A stretch of 29,195 nt of DNA, from NCBI GenBank assembly GCA_964589805.1, contig CAZPUV010000003.1, positions 1-29,195 of the forward strand, given 5' to 3'. The notes under the pieces were generated by a model that had not been told where the DNA came from, did no database searches, and saw only the letters and a list, made by a program, of their open reading frames with translations. The position numbers were made by a program, and so were the translations under genes. Positions 2,751 to 10,069 of the stretch are shown here, piece by piece (positions within the stretch are counted from its first letter, which is position 1; the number at the start of each line of letters is the position of its first letter). This DNA comes from an uncultured bacterium (GTDB lineage: Bacteria > Krumholzibacteriota > Krumholzibacteriia > WVZY01 > JAKEHA01).

Positions 2751-3569
2751 TCAGGGCGACGGGATGAGTGGCTTCGCGCGGTCGCCGAACGCGACAAGGA
2801 CGCTCGTCGTCCGGGAATGCCGCGGACCCGCTTCGGGAATGCCCTTGATCGAGGGCACCGTCCGGGTCTCGCGAACGCGCTCGATCTCGCATCGCGCCAG
2901 GCGGAAGACGGGCACGTCGGGCGAACGCCACACCTTTACTCTATCGACATTCCGCTGCAACAGTTTCACGCGGCCGGCCGGAATCTCGCGCGAGACGACG
3001 TTCTCGAACTGGCGCATCTCGCCGGTGATCCTGCCCGCCGGTGTCGACACGGTGGCGCCGGGCGTGACCTTCCAGTCGCTTTCGGAGGCGGGGTGGACGA
3101 TCGTCAGCCGTGTCAGGTCCCGCGGGTCACCCTTCTCGACCGGGCCACGGCCTCTTCTAATATAGAGCCGGCTCACGTACCGGTAAAGGGAGTCTCCGGC
3201 CGCCATGGCGCGGACGGCGCCATCGACCAGGAAGCGCGCCGCATCGCGCTCACCCGCTCCGGCCCCGACCGGACCATTCTCGATCTCGAGCCAGTAGGCG
3301 TCGCGCGATTGCTCACGGCCGACCACGGCGATGTACACCTCGCTGGAATCCACCTCCCCCATCGCTTCGTCGATCACAATGTAGCGGCACCATTTCCCCA
3401 CCGCGAAATCCACGTCGCGGATGTCGATCCCGGGGAGCAGGAGCGTGCCCGTTTCGTCCGCGTACGACGCGGGCGCCAGGAGCAGCAGCGCCAGGACACC
3501 GGCCGCGCCGAGGCCGCGGCTAATGCGCGATCTGCTGCCAGTCGGCATCGTAATCGAAACCCGGGTCAT
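2751..3569 (-). CDS. Hypothetical exported protein, DUF3108-like beta-rich fold (start at 3569 or 3548)
   Basis: Hydrophobic signal (GVLALLLLAPASYA). GKWCRY, TVSTPAGR and VWRSPDVP segments resemble DUF3108-like proteins from memory. Either start overlaps the 3' end of the upstream cytochrome gene. Confidence 0.65.
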   Translation of the reverse strand: MTRVSITMPTGSRSRISRGLGAAGVLALLLLAPASYADETGTLLLPGIDIRDVDFAVGKWCRYIVIDEAMGEVDSSEVYIAVVGREQSRDAYWLEIENGPVGAGAGERDAARFLVDGAVRAMAAGDSLYRYVSRLYIRRGRGPVEKGDPRDLTRLTIVHPASESDWKVTPGATVSTPAGRITGEMRQFENVVSREIPAGRVKLLQRNVDRVKVWRSPDVPVFRLARCEIERVRETRTVPSIKGIPEAGPRHSRTTSVLVAFGDRAKPLIPSP

Positions 3570-4956
3570 CGCTCTCCGTGTGGCATTTTACACAGCTCTC
3601 GGCCGCGCGCTTCCGGTACGAGCCATCCCTGGCGTGCTCGCTCCCGGGACCGTGGCACGCCTCGCACTGCACGTCGACCAGGTCCACGAGCGCGCCGCGG
3701 GCTCGGAATCCGCGGAAACCACCCGGCTCGCCGAACCCGGTGACGTGGCACCCGACGCAACTGGTGTCGCGGTGCACGAACTGGGACGTGAGCGTGGCAT
3801 ACGCCCGCGCGTGCGCGGTCCCCATGTACACCTCGAACGCGTCCGCGTGGCACGACTGGCAGGCTCCCACGCCCAGGTAGCGGTGGCTGCCGGGACCACC
3901 GTCGGCGGACTGGAGCTGCTGGCGCGCGTAGAGCTCCTTCTGCACCTTGCGATTCTCCTCGTCGAACTCGTCGAGCCGGCGCGTCATCTCGGGGTCGTCC
4001 GGGACCGACGCGATCAGCGGATGAATACGGTTGCGACTGCCGGCCACCCGTTTCTTCGCTCCGAGCGTGATGCCGAGTTCGCCGATGAACTGGCCCTGCG
4101 ACGTCGCGCGAAGCAGCGTCGTGTTCCGGACCACGGGCGGTTCGCCGAGAGGTCCGCCCTGCGGGTCGTGCCCGAGCACGATGAAGTCGATTCCGTCGAC
4201 GGTCTCCGCGATGCGCGTCGCCTCCTCCTGGCTCATGTGCGCGAGCAGCACCATCACGTCGCAGGCGGCCCGCAGTTCGGGGGCCACCGCGCGCACCGCT
4301 TCGAGAGGATCGCCGATCGTGTACGTGAGACTCTCCACCGTGGCCGGCGTCTCCCCGCCGACCGCGCGCGCGGCCTTGGTGGCGGGCGAAATGACCCCGA
4401 GGAACCCGAATCGCGCTCCGGCCCGCCGGACGATCACGTAGGGCGGGAACGCCGTCCCGAGCCGGTCCGCCACCCGGTCCGCCGGTCCACCCGTGCGGAC
4501 CCGGAGCGAGTCCCCCCGGGCCACCAGGTTGGCACACACGATCGGAAGCCGGTACTCCCGGGCATCCCGGGCCAGGGCCGCCAGGCCGAAATTGAGGTCC
4601 ATTTCGCCCACGCCCACGGCGTCGTAGCCCAGCACCCCCATCATGCGCGCCACGAAGTGCGACTTGGCCTCGTTGAACACGTCCGCCGTGCCGAAGAAGT
4701 CTCCCGCCGTGCACAGGATCACCGGCGCCGGCCGCGACCTCAGGTCGTTGAGCAAACTCGCCCGCCGGGCGAGACCGCCAGAGGCGTTGGCGTGTCACCC
4801 GCAGGGTCGATAATAGGCGCGCGTGTCGCTCTCGTAGACCAGGCGGACGTCGGGCTCGGGCGGCGCCTCGCCGGCTGTTTCCGGCGGCGACTGCGCGAAG
4901 CCATAGGCCGCCGCGAGGACGGCGAGGAAAGGCGCGATACGAAGGAATCGAGTCAT
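3520..4956 (-). CDS. Exported UshA/5'-nucleotidase-like (seleno)protein fused to a tetraheme cytochrome c domain; in-frame TGA at 4795-4797 predicted as selenocysteine (U54); 478 aa
   Basis: ORFs 4795..5037 and 3520..4755 are in the same frame, separated only by TGA: ...YYRPCG*HANASGGLARRASLLNDL.... ATG at 4956 gives a signal peptide. Metallophosphoesterase-like segments GGLARRA, TAGDFF, LGYDAVGVGEMD and LGHD are present. Four CxxCH motifs lie at 3847-3861, 3745-3759, 3652-3666 and 3580-3594. Confidence 0.88.
4757..4773 (-). promoter_or_regulatory. Candidate bacterial SECIS hairpin
   Basis: mRNA CUCGCCC-GGC-GGGCGAG forms a perfect 7-bp stem. The loop begins with G, 29 nt 3' of the UGA. Confidence 0.6.
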
Positions 4957-4962
4957 GCCCGG

Positions 4963-4992
4963 AATATACCACGCGGGCGCGTGACGCCGCAA
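4963..4992 (-). promoter_or_regulatory. Sigma70-type promoter with extended -10, probably leaderless
   Basis: TTGCGG-N18-TATATT with TG at the extended position. The -10 box ends 6 nt before ATG 4956, and there is no Shine-Dalgarno. Confidence 0.65.
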
Positions 4993-5035
4993 CTGCTTGG
5001 GGGAGATTAAGTTGGGCGTTCGTCCCGGAGGAGCC

Positions 5036-5072
5036 AAAAAGAAGCAGGCGGGGCGCCCGGCGCTCCGCCTGC
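5036..5072 (-). terminator. Intrinsic terminator downstream of HU
   Basis: GCAGGCGGAGCGC-CGG-GCGCCCCGCCTGC stem (one mismatch) followed by TTCTTTTT on the minus strand. Confidence 0.85.
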
Positions 5073-5096: not shown

Positions 5097-5390
5097 TTAC
5101 ACCTTTACGCGGTCCTTCAGTGCACGGCCCGCGGAGAATGCCGGGAACTTCGTTGCCGGGATCTCGATGGTCGCACCCGTCTGCGGATTGCGTCCCTCCC
5201 GCTTCTTCCGCTTGCGGATCTGGAACGTTCCGAAGCCGGTTATCTGGACCTTGCGTCCTGACTTGAGCTCGTTGGCGATGATGCCGTTCTTCGGGGTGGT
5301 GCTGAAAATCGCATCGACGACGTTCTTGGCGTCCTTCATCGTGAGCCCTGTCTTCTGTGCTACGCGTTCGACGAGTTCGGTCTTGTTCAT
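5097..5390 (-). CDS. hup: HU family DNA-binding protein, 97 aa
   Basis: MNKTELVERVA...KVQITGFGTF...GRNPQTGATIEIPATKFPAFSAGRALKD. GGAGGTG RBS precedes ATG 5390; the ORF-track extension to 5498 covers the promoter. Confidence 0.97.
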   Translation of the reverse strand: MNKTELVERVAQKTGLTMKDAKNVVDAIFSTTPKNGIIANELKSGRKVQITGFGTFQIRKRKKREGRNPQTGATIEIPATKFPAFSAGRALKDRVKV

Positions 5391-5419
5391 GAAGTCACCT
5401 CCTTCCCGTTCTGACGCGA

Positions 5420-5449
5420 ACTCTATCGACCCTTCAAAAAACGTGTCAA
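5420..5449 (-). promoter_or_regulatory. Sigma70-type promoter of hup
   Basis: TTGACA-N18-TAGAGT, 29 nt upstream of the start codon. Confidence 0.75.
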
Positions 5450-5522
5450 CACTTATTCGGCGGTTCTTGGCTTGGCGACGGCTAATTCCGGGGGACAACC
5501 CCGGACGGCGTTTCCGGCGGGG

Positions 5523-8500
5523 TCAGAATCGTCCGATGAGGCCGCCCCCGACACCCCTGTCCCCCGATTCTGCGAACAGGTCGGGGTGCGCCTTGAGCGC
5601 GATGCGGAAGTAGTACTGCCACTCGTCGCCGAGCTGCTGGCGCGAGAAGCTCATCTCCCAGCAATGCAAGTCGCGTGTGACGCTGAAGTTCTGGCCGGAC
5701 AGCCGCTGCTGCTCGACGTCGTAGATCGTCGAGTAGTCCACGCGCCACCGGTCGGTGAGCTTGACGTCCCAGCCGACACGCAGCGTCGAATTCACGGCAC
5801 CCGTGGCACCCTTGCTGTAGCTCAGACCGAGCGACAGATTCCAGGGGAGCCTGCCCTCCTGGACGTCCAGTTCCCCGCTCTCGGACGCGGATCGCTCGCC
5901 CACGAAATCGCCGGTCTGGACGAACTCCACGCCCCCGGCGGCGAAGTCGCGACCCTTCGCGCGCGTCGCGGCGGCGGTGTCGGCCGCGGCGACCACGTTC
6001 AACTCCCTCACTTCCACCGAGGACGAACGGCCGAACGGGTGCGTCCCGCTGATACGGAATGAGGTCGTGGCGTTCGTGTTGAGAACGTCGAAGGTGTACG
6101 GATCGACGGAGTTGTTTATGGAGAGATTCGCCCCCGCGATCACGGTGTTGAAGCTGCTCCCGATCGTGCCCCACGCCTTCGACAGCGGCACATCGGGCCG
6201 ATAGCTCGTGGTCAGGTTCCAGATGACGACGCCGGAGAGCTTCTGGACGTCCTCCTCGCCGGTGGACGTCGTGTCGTCGCGGGCCACCTTGACGTCGATG
6301 GAGTTGCGCAGGCCGAGCGACACGGACTGCTGTCGCGGGCGTTCGTTGCGGGGCGGCGTGTAGCTGTACGACGCAGACGGAGATACGGCGTGACGGATTC
6401 CGCGGATCCTCCCGATGTGCGGGTAGAATGTCCCGTAGAAGTTCGTGTTCGCGCTTCCTCCCAGGCTCCATGTGAAGTCGTTCTTCGTCTCCACGGAATC
6501 GATGGCCGAGACGAAGGTGGTGTCGATGGCGTTCCCGACCCTCCGGTACTCCTCGTGCGCATCGCGCCGGAAGTCCGTCCGCGTGCTGGTGAGGCTCGTG
6601 TTGATTCCGGGCGACAGCGTCACGAAGCCCAGCTTCTGCGGGCTCGAGAAGCTCAGACCCGCGCGGCCGCTGACGACCTCGTTCCGCTCGAACAGCTTCT
6701 CGTTGACGCGGCGGCTCCCCCCCAGGGACGGCGAGTAGCGCGTGCTCCTGAGCAATCCCGACCAGAATCCATCCGCCGCGCCCGCGTCGGGCCCGAAGTA
6801 GAGGCTCCGCGATGGAATCGAGAGCGTGACGTCGGGCATGGTCATGTCCACCCGGGTGGCGTTCGGATCGACGATGTTGAGATTCTGCGTGCGGCTCGCG
6901 GATGCGCTGAACCCCACGGTGTCCCAGCTCTTGCGGACACTGGCCGTGGACCGGATCGACCGGTCGATGTAGCGATTCACGTCGTCGATGGTGTTGACAC
7001 TCTGCGGCGCGTCGTCGCTCGAGACGAACCTCAGCTGGGCATTCAGCGTGAATTTCTCGCCCAGGGTCTGACCGTGTGATCCGTCGATGGTCCACTGGGT
7101 GGACTGGTCGTTCAGATCGCGGAAATACGAGAAGTTCGCCCCCCCGTCGAACTTGTAGCGCAGGCGGTAGCGATTCTGGACGTGCGCTCGCCACGACCGG
7201 TCCTCGTTGAAATCCGTGACGAGCGTGAAGTCCGTGTAGTCGTTCGTGGCCCAGTAGTAGCCGACGTTGCGGATGAACCGCCCCGATTCTCCGGTGATGC
7301 CGAATTCGATGTCCGGCCTCAGGAACCCCGACTGCCGTCCCCGGCGTATGCTGTTGGCCATGAACGGAAGCGCGATGATGGGGGTCTTTCCGACGTGCAG
7401 CCAGATGGGCCCCGTGAAGACCTTGTCCTCCGGGTAGACCTTCATGGTCCGGGCGGCGAAGTGGTAGTGGGGTTCCGCGAGATCGCAAGTGGTGTACCAC
7501 GAGTTCCACACCTTCATCTCGTTCTCACCCACCTTGGCCATGTTCTCGCCGCTGTAGAAACCCTCCTCGTAGCGGGTGGAGCCGGAGAGCACGAGCCCCG
7601 TCTCCGTGTCCATGTCGTACTCCATGCGTTTCCCGAGCAGTTTCTGACCGCCCTCGGTGAGCACGGGTGCGCCGGCCGCGTCGAGGATCTGCAGATCGAA
7701 GTAGTACGTGATCATGTCGCCGGCCAGTTCGCTGTTGCGGTAGCGCACGCGCGCCGACTCGCGCAACACGAGCTGTTTGCGGTCGGCGAAGTACTGGACG
7801 TGCTCCGCGGCATAGGCAACCCGATCCGCGCGCGCGGCGAATGGAACGTACTGGAGGGTCGTGTCCGCGACGGCGCGAAGGCTGTCCGCGGTCTGCCCGG
7901 TGGAGAGGTCGACGTAGCGGTACACGCCATCGGACTTCCCCGATACGTCGACGTACTCGATGGCCTGGTCGCCGAAGCGGAAGAACATCTCGTCGCCGCG
8001 CACGGAGTTCCCTTCCACCTTCTTCGGGTTCGACGGGAAGTACTCGCTGGATGCGTTGCCGGTGACGCGCAGCGAGTCGAGGCCGTTGCCGTGCAGGTAG
8101 AGCGTCATGGAGTCGCCGCGGATGCGGCTGTCGCGGCCGGTCACCAGGGAGTCGCGCACCGCTTCCGTGATCTCCGCCCTGCCCTCGACATCGACGCGGT
8201 GGATCTCGCTCTCGTTGTAGAAGGCGACCATGCGTTCGCCCTTCATGGTCACGTTGTTCTGCTTCGCGATCGGATTCCCGAACAGCTCCACGCGCTTGAG
8301 ATCGTCGTAGACCATGGCGGAATCGCACTGGGTCACGGTGTTTCCCTTGAGGATCCGCACCGCGTAGTAGGCGGAGGCCCGCGAGCTGTCGGGGTAGACA
8401 CGCATGGTGTCGGCCAGGACTCGCACCGGCTCCGGATCGCCCGGGCCGGAGATCAGCTCCGGGTCCTGGTCCACGACACCCTCGCCGCGATTGCGGTAGA

Positions 8501-9101
8501 ACACGCCGTGACGGCCCCGGACGACGATGCCCTCGGTCTGGTTGGTGATCTCCACGCTCCCGAACGCCTCCGCACGCCCGGAGAGGCGCTCGTAGAGCAG
8601 CCGGTCCGTTCGGATCACCGACGTCGAGTCCACGCCCACCACGCGGCCGATGAGCCACGCCTGCCCGGTCGTGCGCGAGTAGCGCGCCTCGTCGCAGGTG
8701 ATCTCCCAGCCCTGGTCGACGATGCGGACGTTGCGGCGCAGGATCGCGAGGTCCTCGTACTGGCGGTACTCGCCCTCGTCGCCGGTCATGACGACATTCT
8801 GCTGCTCGACCCGGACGTTTCCGTCCAGGATCGTGACCCGGCGCACCGAGTAGGACAGACCATGGTTGGCGGTGAGCGTGACGTCGCCGTGCACGATGCG
8901 GACGTTGTCGACGAGTTCGAGGACGGTCTCGCCGCCGATGTTCCGGAGCGAACTCCGGTCGGCGTCGATATCGAAGTGGTCCGCGGCCGGCGGCTGTTGC
9001 GTGGAGGCGATGTTCGCGACGAACACCGTCGCGAGGATGAGCCCCGCGCAGAGTGCGGCGGGCGCGCGGCGCGGTCGATGATCGTCGCGGAAGAACGGCA
9101 T
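5523..9101 (-). CDS. lptD: LPS assembly protein LptD with extended N-terminal OstA/LptA-like beta-jellyroll repeats, about 1192 aa
   Basis: Signal peptide from ATG 9101. Repeated OstA-like segments (VRIVHGDVTLTAN, VEQQNVVMTGD, ITCDEARY, TQCDSAMVY). LptD motifs YTTCDLAEPHYHF, GRQSGFLRP and RDLHCWEM, followed by an aromatic-rich beta-barrel region. Confidence 0.85.
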   Translation of the reverse strand: MPFFRDDHRPRRAPAALCAGLILATVFVANIASTQQPPAADHFDIDADRSSLRNIGGETVLELVDNVRIVHGDVTLTANHGLSYSVRRVTILDGNVRVEQQNVVMTGDEGEYRQYEDLAILRRNVRIVDQGWEITCDEARYSRTTGQAWLIGRVVGVDSTSVIRTDRLLYERLSGRAEAFGSVEITNQTEGIVVRGRHGVFYRNRGEGVVDQDPELISGPGDPEPVRVLADTMRVYPDSSRASAYYAVRILKGNTVTQCDSAMVYDDLKRVELFGNPIAKQNNVTMKGERMVAFYNESEIHRVDVEGRAEITEAVRDSLVTGRDSRIRGDSMTLYLHGNGLDSLRVTGNASSEYFPSNPKKVEGNSVRGDEMFFRFGDQAIEYVDVSGKSDGVYRYVDLSTGQTADSLRAVADTTLQYVPFAARADRVAYAAEHVQYFADRKQLVLRESARVRYRNSELAGDMITYYFDLQILDAAGAPVLTEGGQKLLGKRMEYDMDTETGLVLSGSTRYEEGFYSGENMAKVGENEMKVWNSWYTTCDLAEPHYHFAARTMKVYPEDKVFTGPIWLHVGKTPIIALPFMANSIRRGRQSGFLRPDIEFGITGESGRFIRNVGYYWATNDYTDFTLVTDFNEDRSWRAHVQNRYRLRYKFDGGANFSYFRDLNDQSTQWTIDGSHGQTLGEKFTLNAQLRFVSSDDAPQSVNTIDDVNRYIDRSIRSTASVRKSWDTVGFSASASRTQNLNIVDPNATRVDMTMPDVTLSIPSRSLYFGPDAGAADGFWSGLLRSTRYSPSLGGSRRVNEKLFERNEVVSGRAGLSFSSPQKLGFVTLSPGINTSLTSTRTDFRRDAHEEYRRVGNAIDTTFVSAIDSVETKNDFTWSLGGSANTNFYGTFYPHIGRIRGIRHAVSPSASYSYTPPRNERPRQQSVSLGLRNSIDVKVARDDTTSTGEEDVQKLSGVVIWNLTTSYRPDVPLSKAWGTIGSSFNTVIAGANLSINNSVDPYTFDVLNTNATTSFRISGTHPFGRSSSVEVRELNVVAAADTAAATRAKGRDFAAGGVEFVQTGDFVGERSASESGELDVQEGRLPWNLSLGLSYSKGATGAVNSTLRVGWDVKLTDRWRVDYSTIYDVEQQRLSGQNFSVTRDLHCWEMSFSRQQLGDEWQYYFRIALKAHPDLFAESGDRGVGGGLIGRF

Positions 9102-9112
9102 CGGACGTCGTC

Positions 9113-10069
9113 TCACACGGGGCGTCGGCGTTTCTTCGTCTTCCTGGCGGCCGGGCCGGCGCACAGCATCGCCGCTCCCACGACCGCGGCGTCGTTTCCC
9201 AGTCGCGAGGGTTCGATGACGGCCGCGGCCACGTTTTCCTTGAACGCGTGGGCGCGCACGGCGCGGCGCACGTGCGGCTCGAACAGGTCGAAGGCGCCCG
9301 CGATTCCGCCGGCCAGCACCACCACCGACGGGTTCAGCACGTCGAGCACCGACGCCACCGCGATGCCCAGGTGTTCACCGGCCTCGCGAACCGCCTCGCG
9401 GCAGGCGGCGTTCCCGCCCCGCGCGGCGTCGAGCACCGCGCGCGCGGTCGCCGGGTAGACGGGCCGCGCGGCACGCGAGCGGCGGCGAATCACCCGCCGG
9501 GCCGCGGCCACGATGCCGTAGGACCCCGCGTATGCCTCGAGACAGCCGCGGGAGCCGCAGCGGCAGCGGGGTCCCCCGGGATTCACCGTCATGTGTCCGA
9601 TCTCCCCGCCGAAACCGGAAACGCCCTGCACCACCCGGCCGCCGGCGACGATCCCGCCGCCGACCCCCGTGCCCATCGTGATGGCGACCAGATCGCGTCC
9701 GCGCGCGCCGCGCACAAACGACTCGCCGAACGCCGCACAGGTGGCGTCGTTGGCGACCATCACCGGGGCGGCGAAATGCCGGCGCGCGAGTCTGGCGAGG
9801 GACGCACCCTTCCACCGCGCCAGGTTCGGCGAGGCGCGCAGCACACCCGTGCGCGCGTCGACGAGACCGGCGCAACCGATCCCGACGCCCTCCACACCCG
9901 TCGCTCCGGCGAGCGTGCGCGCGGCATCGTGGATGCGGCGGAACGCCGCCGCCGGTCCGTCGCCGGCGCGGGTTTCGATCACCCCGCGCGCGAGCACGCG
10001 CCCGCTGGCCGAGACGGCCGCGACCTTGATGTTCGTCCCCCCGATATCGACGCCGAGATATGTTCTCAA
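9113..10069 (-). CDS. ROK family sugar kinase (glucokinase-like), 318 aa
   Basis: GVDIGGT, NDA, GTGVGGG and the zinc motif GHMT...CRCGSRGCLEAY. TTG start at 10069 overlaps the folC stop (TTGA). Confidence 0.92.
   Translation of the reverse strand: MRTYLGVDIGGTNIKVAAVSASGRVLARGVIETRAGDGPAAAFRRIHDAARTLAGATGVEGVGIGCAGLVDARTGVLRASPNLARWKGASLARLARRHFAAPVMVANDATCAAFGESFVRGARGRDLVAITMGTGVGGGIVAGGRVVQGVSGFGGEIGHMTVNPGGPRCRCGSRGCLEAYAGSYGIVAAARRVIRRRSRAARPVYPATARAVLDAARGGNAACREAVREAGEHLGIAVASVLDVLNPSVVVLAGGIAGAFDLFEPHVRRAVRAHAFKENVAAAVIEPSRLGNDAAVVGAAMLCAGPAARKTKKRRRPV

Follow-up and report, generated by a model that had tools for sequence, protein, structure and literature searches.

A UGA-interrupted gene of an uncultured Krumholzibacteriota bacterium as a divergent member of the UshA-like PCGU family of tetraheme (seleno)proteins

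UshA-like proteins carrying a CxU motif, in which U is selenocysteine (Sec), were catalogued as a selenoprotein family ('COG0737, UshA-like, CxU') by Zhang & Gladyshev in 2008, with 76 Sec sequences in the Global Ocean Sampling (GOS) data (PMC2398784). The family was relisted in reviews of 2022 (PMC9312934) and 2026 (PMC13188914), the latter citing the curated NCBIfam model NF041198, and a literature search for the function of this UshA-like PCGU family found none. A functional analog is MccSep of Geobacter sulfurreducens (GSU2937/2936), a periplasmic multiheme selenoenzyme that reduces polysulfide and selenite; the UGA encoding its Sec had split the annotated gene in two, and this Sec and a Cys are both essential for catalysis (PMC13510729). 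Here I describe a gene on a 29,195-nucleotide stretch of DNA from an uncultured Krumholzibacteriota bacterium (contig CAZPUV010000003.1 of assembly GCA_964589805.1, positions 1 to 29,195; hereafter the window), which a first-pass annotation, made from the sequence alone, had proposed to be a hidden selenoprotein joining a signal peptide to an UshA-like domain and a tetraheme cytochrome. The selenoprotein reading is supported by the analysis presented below. Its treatment as hidden and new is not, as both the PCGU motif and the tetraheme architecture are already present in NF041198 and have been in the selenoprotein literature since 2008. The gene is therefore not a new kind of protein.

With translation table 11, the gene is called as two open reading frames (ORFs), of 80 amino acids (4795..5037) and 411 amino acids (3520..4755), which lie in the same minus-strand frame. 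Between the ATG at 4956 and the TAG at 3520, the sole stop in this frame is the TGA at 4795–4797, codon 54. The start position is supported by full-length Cys homologues (476–488 amino acids), which start at the matching place. The TGA is found in the context TGC GGG TGA CAC (C52-G53-*54-H55), or more widely R-P-C-G-TGA-H-A-N-A-S-G-G-L-A-R-R, and the codons directly 3' of it (HANASGGLARRASL) are aligned by phmmer to the GGVARRA segment of solved 5'-nucleotidases. The N-terminal piece begins in a signal-peptide-like manner (MTRFLRIAPFLAVLAAAYGFAQS), with an MR...LGAAQA leader that is common to the homologues, while no signal peptide was found on inspection of the 411-residue piece. TGA is the ordinary stop of the neighboring LptD gene and of the adjacent 272-residue gene, and the genetic code is therefore not reassigned. 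It is very probable that the two-piece call is an annotation error, and that the locus holds a single gene for an exported, four-heme selenoprotein of the UshA-like PCGU family. Most homologues in the databases are likewise calls of 396–414 amino acids, labeled 'multiheme c-type cytochrome' or 'hypothetical'. The first-pass annotation was thus correct in every detail of the frame and its single TGA, and right about the nucleotidase-like segment, the lack of a signal peptide on the downstream piece, the unaltered genetic code and the truncation by standard annotation.

The column of the TGA is occupied by Cys in 22 of 22 full-length homologues (61–67% identical), within an invariant YESDTRAYYRPCGC block. 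Codon 54 was then compared across 17 related loci, taken from species-representative genomes labeled Krumholzibacteriia or Latescibacterota: it is TGA in 12 of these, and TGC or TGT in five. Six other genomes of the phylum hold members that pass the NF041198 cut-off, with ∼31% protein identity to the window's gene, and all six have TGA at the same motif. Among 57 full-length, diverse members (24–33% identity), position 52 is Cys in 55 and position 54 is Cys in 56, which makes these the best-conserved residues of the N-domain. The protein sequence of the 16 residues upstream of the TGA, outside the called ORF, is also nearly invariant. Positions 4795–4797 are covered, without any change, by Logan contigs of three metagenomes (estuary, bioreactor and groundwater), one of which may be the source sample. 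The homologues therefore have Cys or TGA at this column, as had been expected, and the TGC/TGT-to-TGA error that was first raised as a possible artifact is excluded by these contigs.

In a phylogenetic tree, which omitted the partial locus L020, the four full-length Cys forms (L015, L019, L024 and L026) fall in one clade (support 97/99); the tree is unrooted and does not set the direction of the Sec/Cys switch. The residues following the Cys in these four forms read C-N/S-x-N-S-A, as opposed to U-H-A-N-A-S in the Sec forms. These altered residues would be consistent with freedom from the constraint of a selenocysteine insertion sequence (SECIS) after a single Sec-to-Cys switch. On a larger scale, when the phylum was scanned, each of the 121 sampled genomes yielded an NF041198 match; 23 exceed the cut-off, and one TGA is present in the majority of the matches. 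The family comprises 551 clusters at E<=1e-30 in a representative library.

The best NCBIfam match of the protein is NF041198 ('UshA_like_PCGU, UshA-like (seleno)protein'), with E 8.8e-71 and 239 bits, in agreement with the initial UshA-like assignment. A six-frame search places profile positions 19–274 on 4042–4863, with the TGA included, and positions 350–518 on 3550–4038, corresponding to the cytochrome part, while positions 275–349 are unmatched. Since both halves of the profile match, the tetraheme fusion belongs to the architecture of the family as such, and this gene introduces nothing new in that respect. The cytochrome part, also predicted at the outset, matches Pfam Cytochrome_C554 (PF13435) at E 3e-15 (57.4 bits, against a gathering cut-off of 20.8), and its four CxxCH motifs are invariant in the 57 members. 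Pfam shows no match to the C-terminal 5'-nucleotidase substrate-binding domain, the C-terminus matching Cytochrome_C554 instead.

The window's gene shares with the NF041198 family the P-C-G-U/C motif immediately after phosphoesterase motif I (here RPCG-TGA, codons 50–54), the alternation of Sec and Cys among relatives, an UshA-like N-domain followed by a C-domain with four CxxCH motifs, and a genomic context with lptD and hup. It differs in its score, which is below the curated cut-off of 275 bits, in the unmatched profile segment, and in the loss of the motif-I His. Its subfamily is characterized by YESDTRAYYRPCGU-HANAS, in contrast to GAVHGEIAPCGU-KxKPL in the members that pass the cut-off, and the two are ∼31% identical. 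The six cut-off-passing members of the phylum, all with TGA, are positional orthologues: all adjoin lptD and five also adjoin hup, like the window's gene. Judged on profile matches and gene order, the gene is a divergent, below-cut-off member of the already catalogued UshA-like PCGU family. Since the function of this family is uncharacterized, membership is uninformative on activity.

Two other described groups resemble parts of the protein. NF049981 (UshA-like (seleno)protein family 2) has both the UshA-like scaffold and a Sec, and the N-terminal 80 residues match it weakly (E 2.6e-11); however, with 43.5 bits the match stays under the cut-off of 140, that family has CxxU in place of CxU, and its model has 262 positions and no cytochrome part. 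Cytochrome c554 of Nitrosomonas (PDB 1bvb/1ft5; PF13435) has a comparable tetraheme c-type domain (phmmer E 3e-8 to 1bvb), but is a free electron carrier, whereas here the domain is the C-terminal module of a two-domain protein.

A paralogue of the Cys form was identified in the window's own genome, on contig C239 (2762-4213; L032 1387-2838). It has 483 residues, with SNDLHGEIRSCGC at the motif and four CxxCH, is 33% identical to the window's protein, retains the motif-I His lost from it, and reaches 146 + 127 bits against NF041198, just under the cut-off. Six loci from other genomes of the phylum (L041, L043, L045, L047, L049 and L050) encode shorter, lipoprotein-looking UshA-like proteins with SSDLLGKIRSCGCT and no CxxCH, that is, a Cys-Gly-Cys scaffold without the cytochrome domain.

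I next consider the RNA downstream of the UGA. RNAalifold, run on 13 close Sec forms, gives two hairpins 3' of this codon. The first has 98% of its cells paired in the consensus and zero compensatory changes, and is not retained in distant Sec forms. Six distant Sec forms were added for a total of 19, from the same phylum, with ∼31% identical protein, passing the NF041198 cut-off and sharing the gene context. In these six, only the second hairpin is retained, with its stem in columns 25–31 and 35–41 (4773-4757) and a GGN loop. Across the 19 sequences, 91% of the cells of this second hairpin are paired, compared to 32–54% with the partner slid, and at pair 27-39 seven sequences have G-C or G-U in place of C-G, a compensatory change. 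The covariation score was reached by none of 500 shuffles, which has to be read with the caveat that the sequences are related. When folded locally, 18 of the 19 Sec forms give this GGN-loop hairpin, in register, as their minimum-energy structure (−11 to −18 kcal/mol), and no consistent hairpin was obtained when six Cys forms were folded at the same place.

The coding sequence over this region was also compared between the two forms. In Sec forms, codons +1 to +13 have a codon identity of 0.725 at columns with the same residue, where the mean of the gene is 0.55 (standard deviation 0.077), and this stretch ranks 6th among 447 sliding windows. The corresponding values for Cys forms are 0.41 and 0.64. 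By this measure, synonymous sites after the UGA are constrained in Sec forms only. A search of Rfam with the hairpin region gave no matching family. The bSECISearch criteria of Zhang and Gladyshev reportedly call for an apical loop ∼16–37 nt downstream of the UGA that has a G among its first positions. The hairpin at 4757-4773 agrees with this bacterial SECIS model in its position and its G-rich loop.

The first-pass annotation had also called for a search of the genome for selA, selB, selC and selD, and three of these were found. In the organism's own assembly, selA (392 bits), selB (373 bits) and selD (231 + 142 bits) are all above their cut-offs, with selD split across two contig ends (C162:5835-6347 and C223:3-428; loci L012 and L013). 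This selD carries an in-frame TGA in the active-site motif CAGUASK, which makes the organism's SelD a selenoprotein as well. The exception is selC, for which the same-genus genomes provide the evidence: tRNA-SeC(UCA) is found at 68–73 bits in four related genomes, two of them from the same genus. The sole candidate in the own assembly was rejected, namely a match to the tRNA-Sec model RF01852 on contig C301 (2756-2842; L001 1501-1591), which at 53.5 bits exceeds the gathering score of 47 and is a tRNA-Leu(UAA) by ARAGORN and clan competition. It would pass as a false selC without clan competition or a check of the anticodon. Similar cross-matches of tRNA-Leu to the tRNA-Sec model, at 51–56 bits, were seen in related genomes.

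A structural model was generated with AlphaFold2 from the alignment of 57 sequences, with a predicted local distance difference test (pLDDT) score of 87 and a predicted template-modeling score (pTM) of 0.86. Foldseek aligns its N-domain and linker to CD73, UshA and the Thermus 5'-nucleotidase (2z1a), with E-values of 1e-19 to 1e-21 and alignments of ∼325–355 columns; the template-modeling (TM) score is ∼0.5 over the N-domain. Like E. coli UshA, CD73 and the Thermus enzyme, the protein has the N-domain fold, a long linker helix, the GGxARR and GD motifs, two His ligands, and a predicted periplasmic or extracellular site. Unlike these, it has four catalytic or metal residues replaced, a tetraheme domain in place of the C-domain, and a Cys-Gly-Sec loop. 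This loop directly follows motif I, which in nucleotidases sits at the dimetal active site. The full dimetal and catalytic set (DxH, GD, GNHE, H and GHxH) is incomplete, with D44-x-R46, G-E118-M119-D and G-H263-D-P in the corresponding positions. Over the 57 members, the classical ligand positions are 58–70% conserved, compared to 96–98% for the Cys pair, indicating that the domain is a remodeled phosphoesterase scaffold in which the selected feature is the C-G-U/C loop.

It could be argued that the protein is a working phosphoesterase, either a 5'-nucleotidase or a SoxB-like thiosulfohydrolase, with the Cys/Sec pair in a regulatory or structural role and the hemes serving another purpose. The 5'-nucleotidase fold and the five possible ligands that remain (D44, D86, E118, H240 and H263) would be in keeping with such an activity, as would a weak SoxB match (E 2e-18), but the latter reaches only 66 bits against a cut-off of 550, and membership of the SoxB-like family was rejected. 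Replacement of the motif-I His, of the Asn and catalytic His of GNHE, and of the second His of GHxH, together with the much stronger conservation of the two Cys positions than of the ligands, and with hemes where the C-domain is absent, makes a working phosphoesterase improbable.

On balance, the protein is somewhat more likely than not to be a periplasmic redox enzyme, acting through its hemes and the Cys/Sec center. In the mechanism that I propose, UGA54 would be read as selenocysteine by SelB and Sec-tRNA(Sec), directed by the G+C-rich, GGC-loop hairpin 28 nt downstream, within the GGLARRA codons; selenium incorporation at this codon is inferred. The protein would be exported by the Sec translocation pathway, and its hemes attached in the periplasm. 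The four hemes could then exchange electrons, in either direction, with the Cys52/Sec54 center, which may act as a selenenyl-sulfide couple, or as a selenolate/thiolate ligand of a residual metal at D44, D86, E118, H240 and H263. The heme domain would sit where UshA has its nucleotide-binding C-domain, and the linker helix may let it swing, in the manner of the UshA C-domain, which moves onto the active site.

MccSep offers a functional analogy only. Like MccSep, the window's protein is predicted to be a periplasmic multiheme c-type cytochrome with one Sec, and is encoded by a UGA-split gene. However, MccSep belongs to an unrelated family, with five hemes, an MCC/NrfA-type fold, its Sec in a C-terminal ...DGUP... 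motif, a Cys heme ligand and no 5'-nucleotidase domain, while the window's protein has four hemes, Sec54 in PCGU and the 5'-nucleotidase fold, and does not qualify as an MccSep. Since MccSep was shown to reduce polysulfide and selenite, a chalcogen is a reasonable guess for the substrate, and no more; a small chalcogen or oxyanion would be the most plausible. A bolder proposal, which I put forward tentatively and consider rather doubtful as a whole, is that of a new type of selenoenzyme, in which the scaffold of a degenerate 5'-nucleotidase carries a metal site remade around Cys52-Gly-Sec54, is fed by the hemes, and would reduce or oxidize a chalcogen or oxyanion in the periplasm, such as polysulfide, thiosulfate or selenite, in convergence with MccSep. 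The Krumholzibacteria subfamily, which lacks the motif-I His and has an overlapping 272-residue partner, could then have its own substrate.

Several observations weigh against the interpretation of this gene as an exported PCGU selenoprotein, and these have to be set beside the evidence above. The whole-protein score does not reach the curated NF041198 cut-off, and within the N-domain of the AlphaFold2 model confidence is lowest at the CxU loop (block 51-60, pLDDT 74). The fold of the single sequence over the 71 nt after the UGA is no stabler than shuffles (z −0.52), so that folding energy by itself makes no case for a SECIS element; the 13 close Sec forms did not exceed shuffles in covariation either, and the covariation support for the hairpin hence depends on the added distant Sec forms, which are themselves related sequences. 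No selC was found: ARAGORN on the whole assembly gives 24 tRNAs, none for Sec, and a BLAST search with the same-genus selC finds nothing. As the assembly is a fragmented metagenome-assembled genome (MAG) of 336 contigs, 89% complete and with only 24 tRNAs, this absence is weak negative evidence. Finally, in the literature searched, no PCGU protein was found to have experimental evidence of selenium, heme or activity.

If UGA54 were instead a true stop, the locus would yield a 53-residue secreted peptide and a separate 411-residue protein from the TTG at 4755, or nothing from the second part. This matches the output of the gene caller and the use of TGA as an ordinary stop elsewhere in the window. 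Attachment of c-type heme requires export to the periplasm, and the 411-residue product, with its four CxxCH motifs, would have no signal peptide to reach it. Moreover, conservation extends to the residues between the UGA and this TTG (HANASGGLARRAS), which contribute to the 5'-nucleotidase fold, and the full-length Cys forms have both parts in one polypeptide. Termination at UGA54 is therefore highly unlikely.

Through near-cognate or suppressor decoding, the UGA could also be read as one of the standard amino acids (Trp, Cys or Arg), an explanation that draws on the lack of selC in the assembly. I consider this equally remote, since selA, selB and a selD that itself requires Sec are present and same-genus genomes possess tRNA-SeC, a SelB-type hairpin is found at the right distance in Sec forms only, and the strict alternation of U and C at a Cys-Gly-Cys site is a classic signature of Sec. 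As for a pseudogene, or an assembly or sequencing error in which a Cys TGC/TGT was mutated to or misread as TGA, the existence of homologues with TGC/TGT at codon 54 and the fragmented state of the MAG would allow it, but it is effectively refuted by the same TGA in 12 other species genomes and six distant positional orthologues, the almost invariant residues upstream, the unchanged contigs from three other studies, and a hairpin common to the Sec forms and not found in the Cys forms. The selenoprotein interpretation is thus retained.

The surroundings of the gene are also conserved, with the order lptD, hup, selenoprotein gene, 272-residue secreted protein and 796-residue protein with a type IX secretion system (T9SS) tail found in related loci (Table 1). 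The linkage to lptD holds both in close relatives and in members from other families of the phylum, at just 31% identity, with hup undetected in one of these six. Of 17 related loci, 14 have the 272-residue gene immediately 3', overlapping to the same extent; two others end too early, and in L030 it was not detected. Because this overlapping arrangement is conserved, the 272-residue protein is a possible partner subunit, and is likely to be co-translated with the selenoprotein. It has no match in Pfam or NCBIfam, and Atlas gives only 'hypothetical' or DUF3108-like leads. The gene for the 796-residue protein follows downstream of it, in a position that is conserved in related loci.

Table 1. 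Features of the selenoprotein locus in the window, and active-site motifs compared with the Thermus 5'-nucleotidase.
Feature	Positions	Strand	Details and basis
796-aa protein with C-terminal T9SS type A sorting domain	333-2723	minus	TIGR04183, 26 bits vs cut-off 23
272-aa secreted protein	2751..3569	minus	Start overlaps 3' end of selenoprotein gene by 50 nt
Predicted UshA-like/tetraheme selenoprotein coding sequence, complete	3520..4956	minus	478 codons + TAG; ATG start at 4956; single TGA in frame
Cytochrome c554-like tetraheme domain, residues ~360-478	3523..3879	minus	PF13435 match; NF041198 profile 350-518
CxxCH motifs	3847-3861, 3745-3759, 3652-3666, 3580-3594	minus	Residues 366-370, 400-404, 431-435, 455-459
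Long inter-domain linker helix, residues 322-349	3910..3993	minus	AlphaFold2, pLDDT >90 over most
UshA/5'-nucleotidase-fold (metallophosphoesterase-like) N-domain, residues ~37-320, remodeled metal site	3997..4848	minus	NF041198 profile, Foldseek, 2z1a alignment
SECIS-like hairpin, 7-bp stem CUCGCCC/GGGCGAG, apical loop GGC	4757..4773	minus	Loop begins 28 nt after UGA
Small first hairpin CGCC-UCU-GGCG, columns 12-22; role uncertain	4776..4786	minus	Conserved in close subfamily only
UGA codon 54, predicted to be read as selenocysteine	4795..4797	minus	Cys column in homologues; TGA in relatives and independent contigs
Cys52 codon (TGC), putative partner of Sec54 in C-G-U motif	4801..4803	minus	Cys in 55/57 diverse full-length members
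Predicted signal peptide, ~residues 1-23, Sec-pathway periplasmic export; cleavage site inferred	4888..4956	minus	Basic n-region, then hydrophobic helix, residues 4-21 in model
lptD and hup, upstream of selenoprotein gene, hup lying between lptD and this gene	5097-9164	minus	Also loci L039-L048
Motif I, NDTHAH to SDTRAY			D44 kept; His replaced by R46 and Y48; 2z1a alignment
GD			Kept (D86); 2z1a alignment
GNHE to GEMD			E118, M119; 2z1a alignment
Lone His ligand (SHLG in 2z1a)			Kept (H240); 2z1a alignment
GHxH to GHDP			H263 only; 2z1a alignment

Since gene callers split or truncate this gene in most MAGs, the selenoproteome and cytochrome inventories of Krumholzibacteriota and Latescibacterota are incomplete. 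The PCGU family is widespread and strongly conserved, often with a costly selenocysteine, and as its function is uncharacterized it represents a reasonable target for biochemistry, the interest of which is raised by the polysulfide reductase role of another heme-wired selenoenzyme, MccSep.

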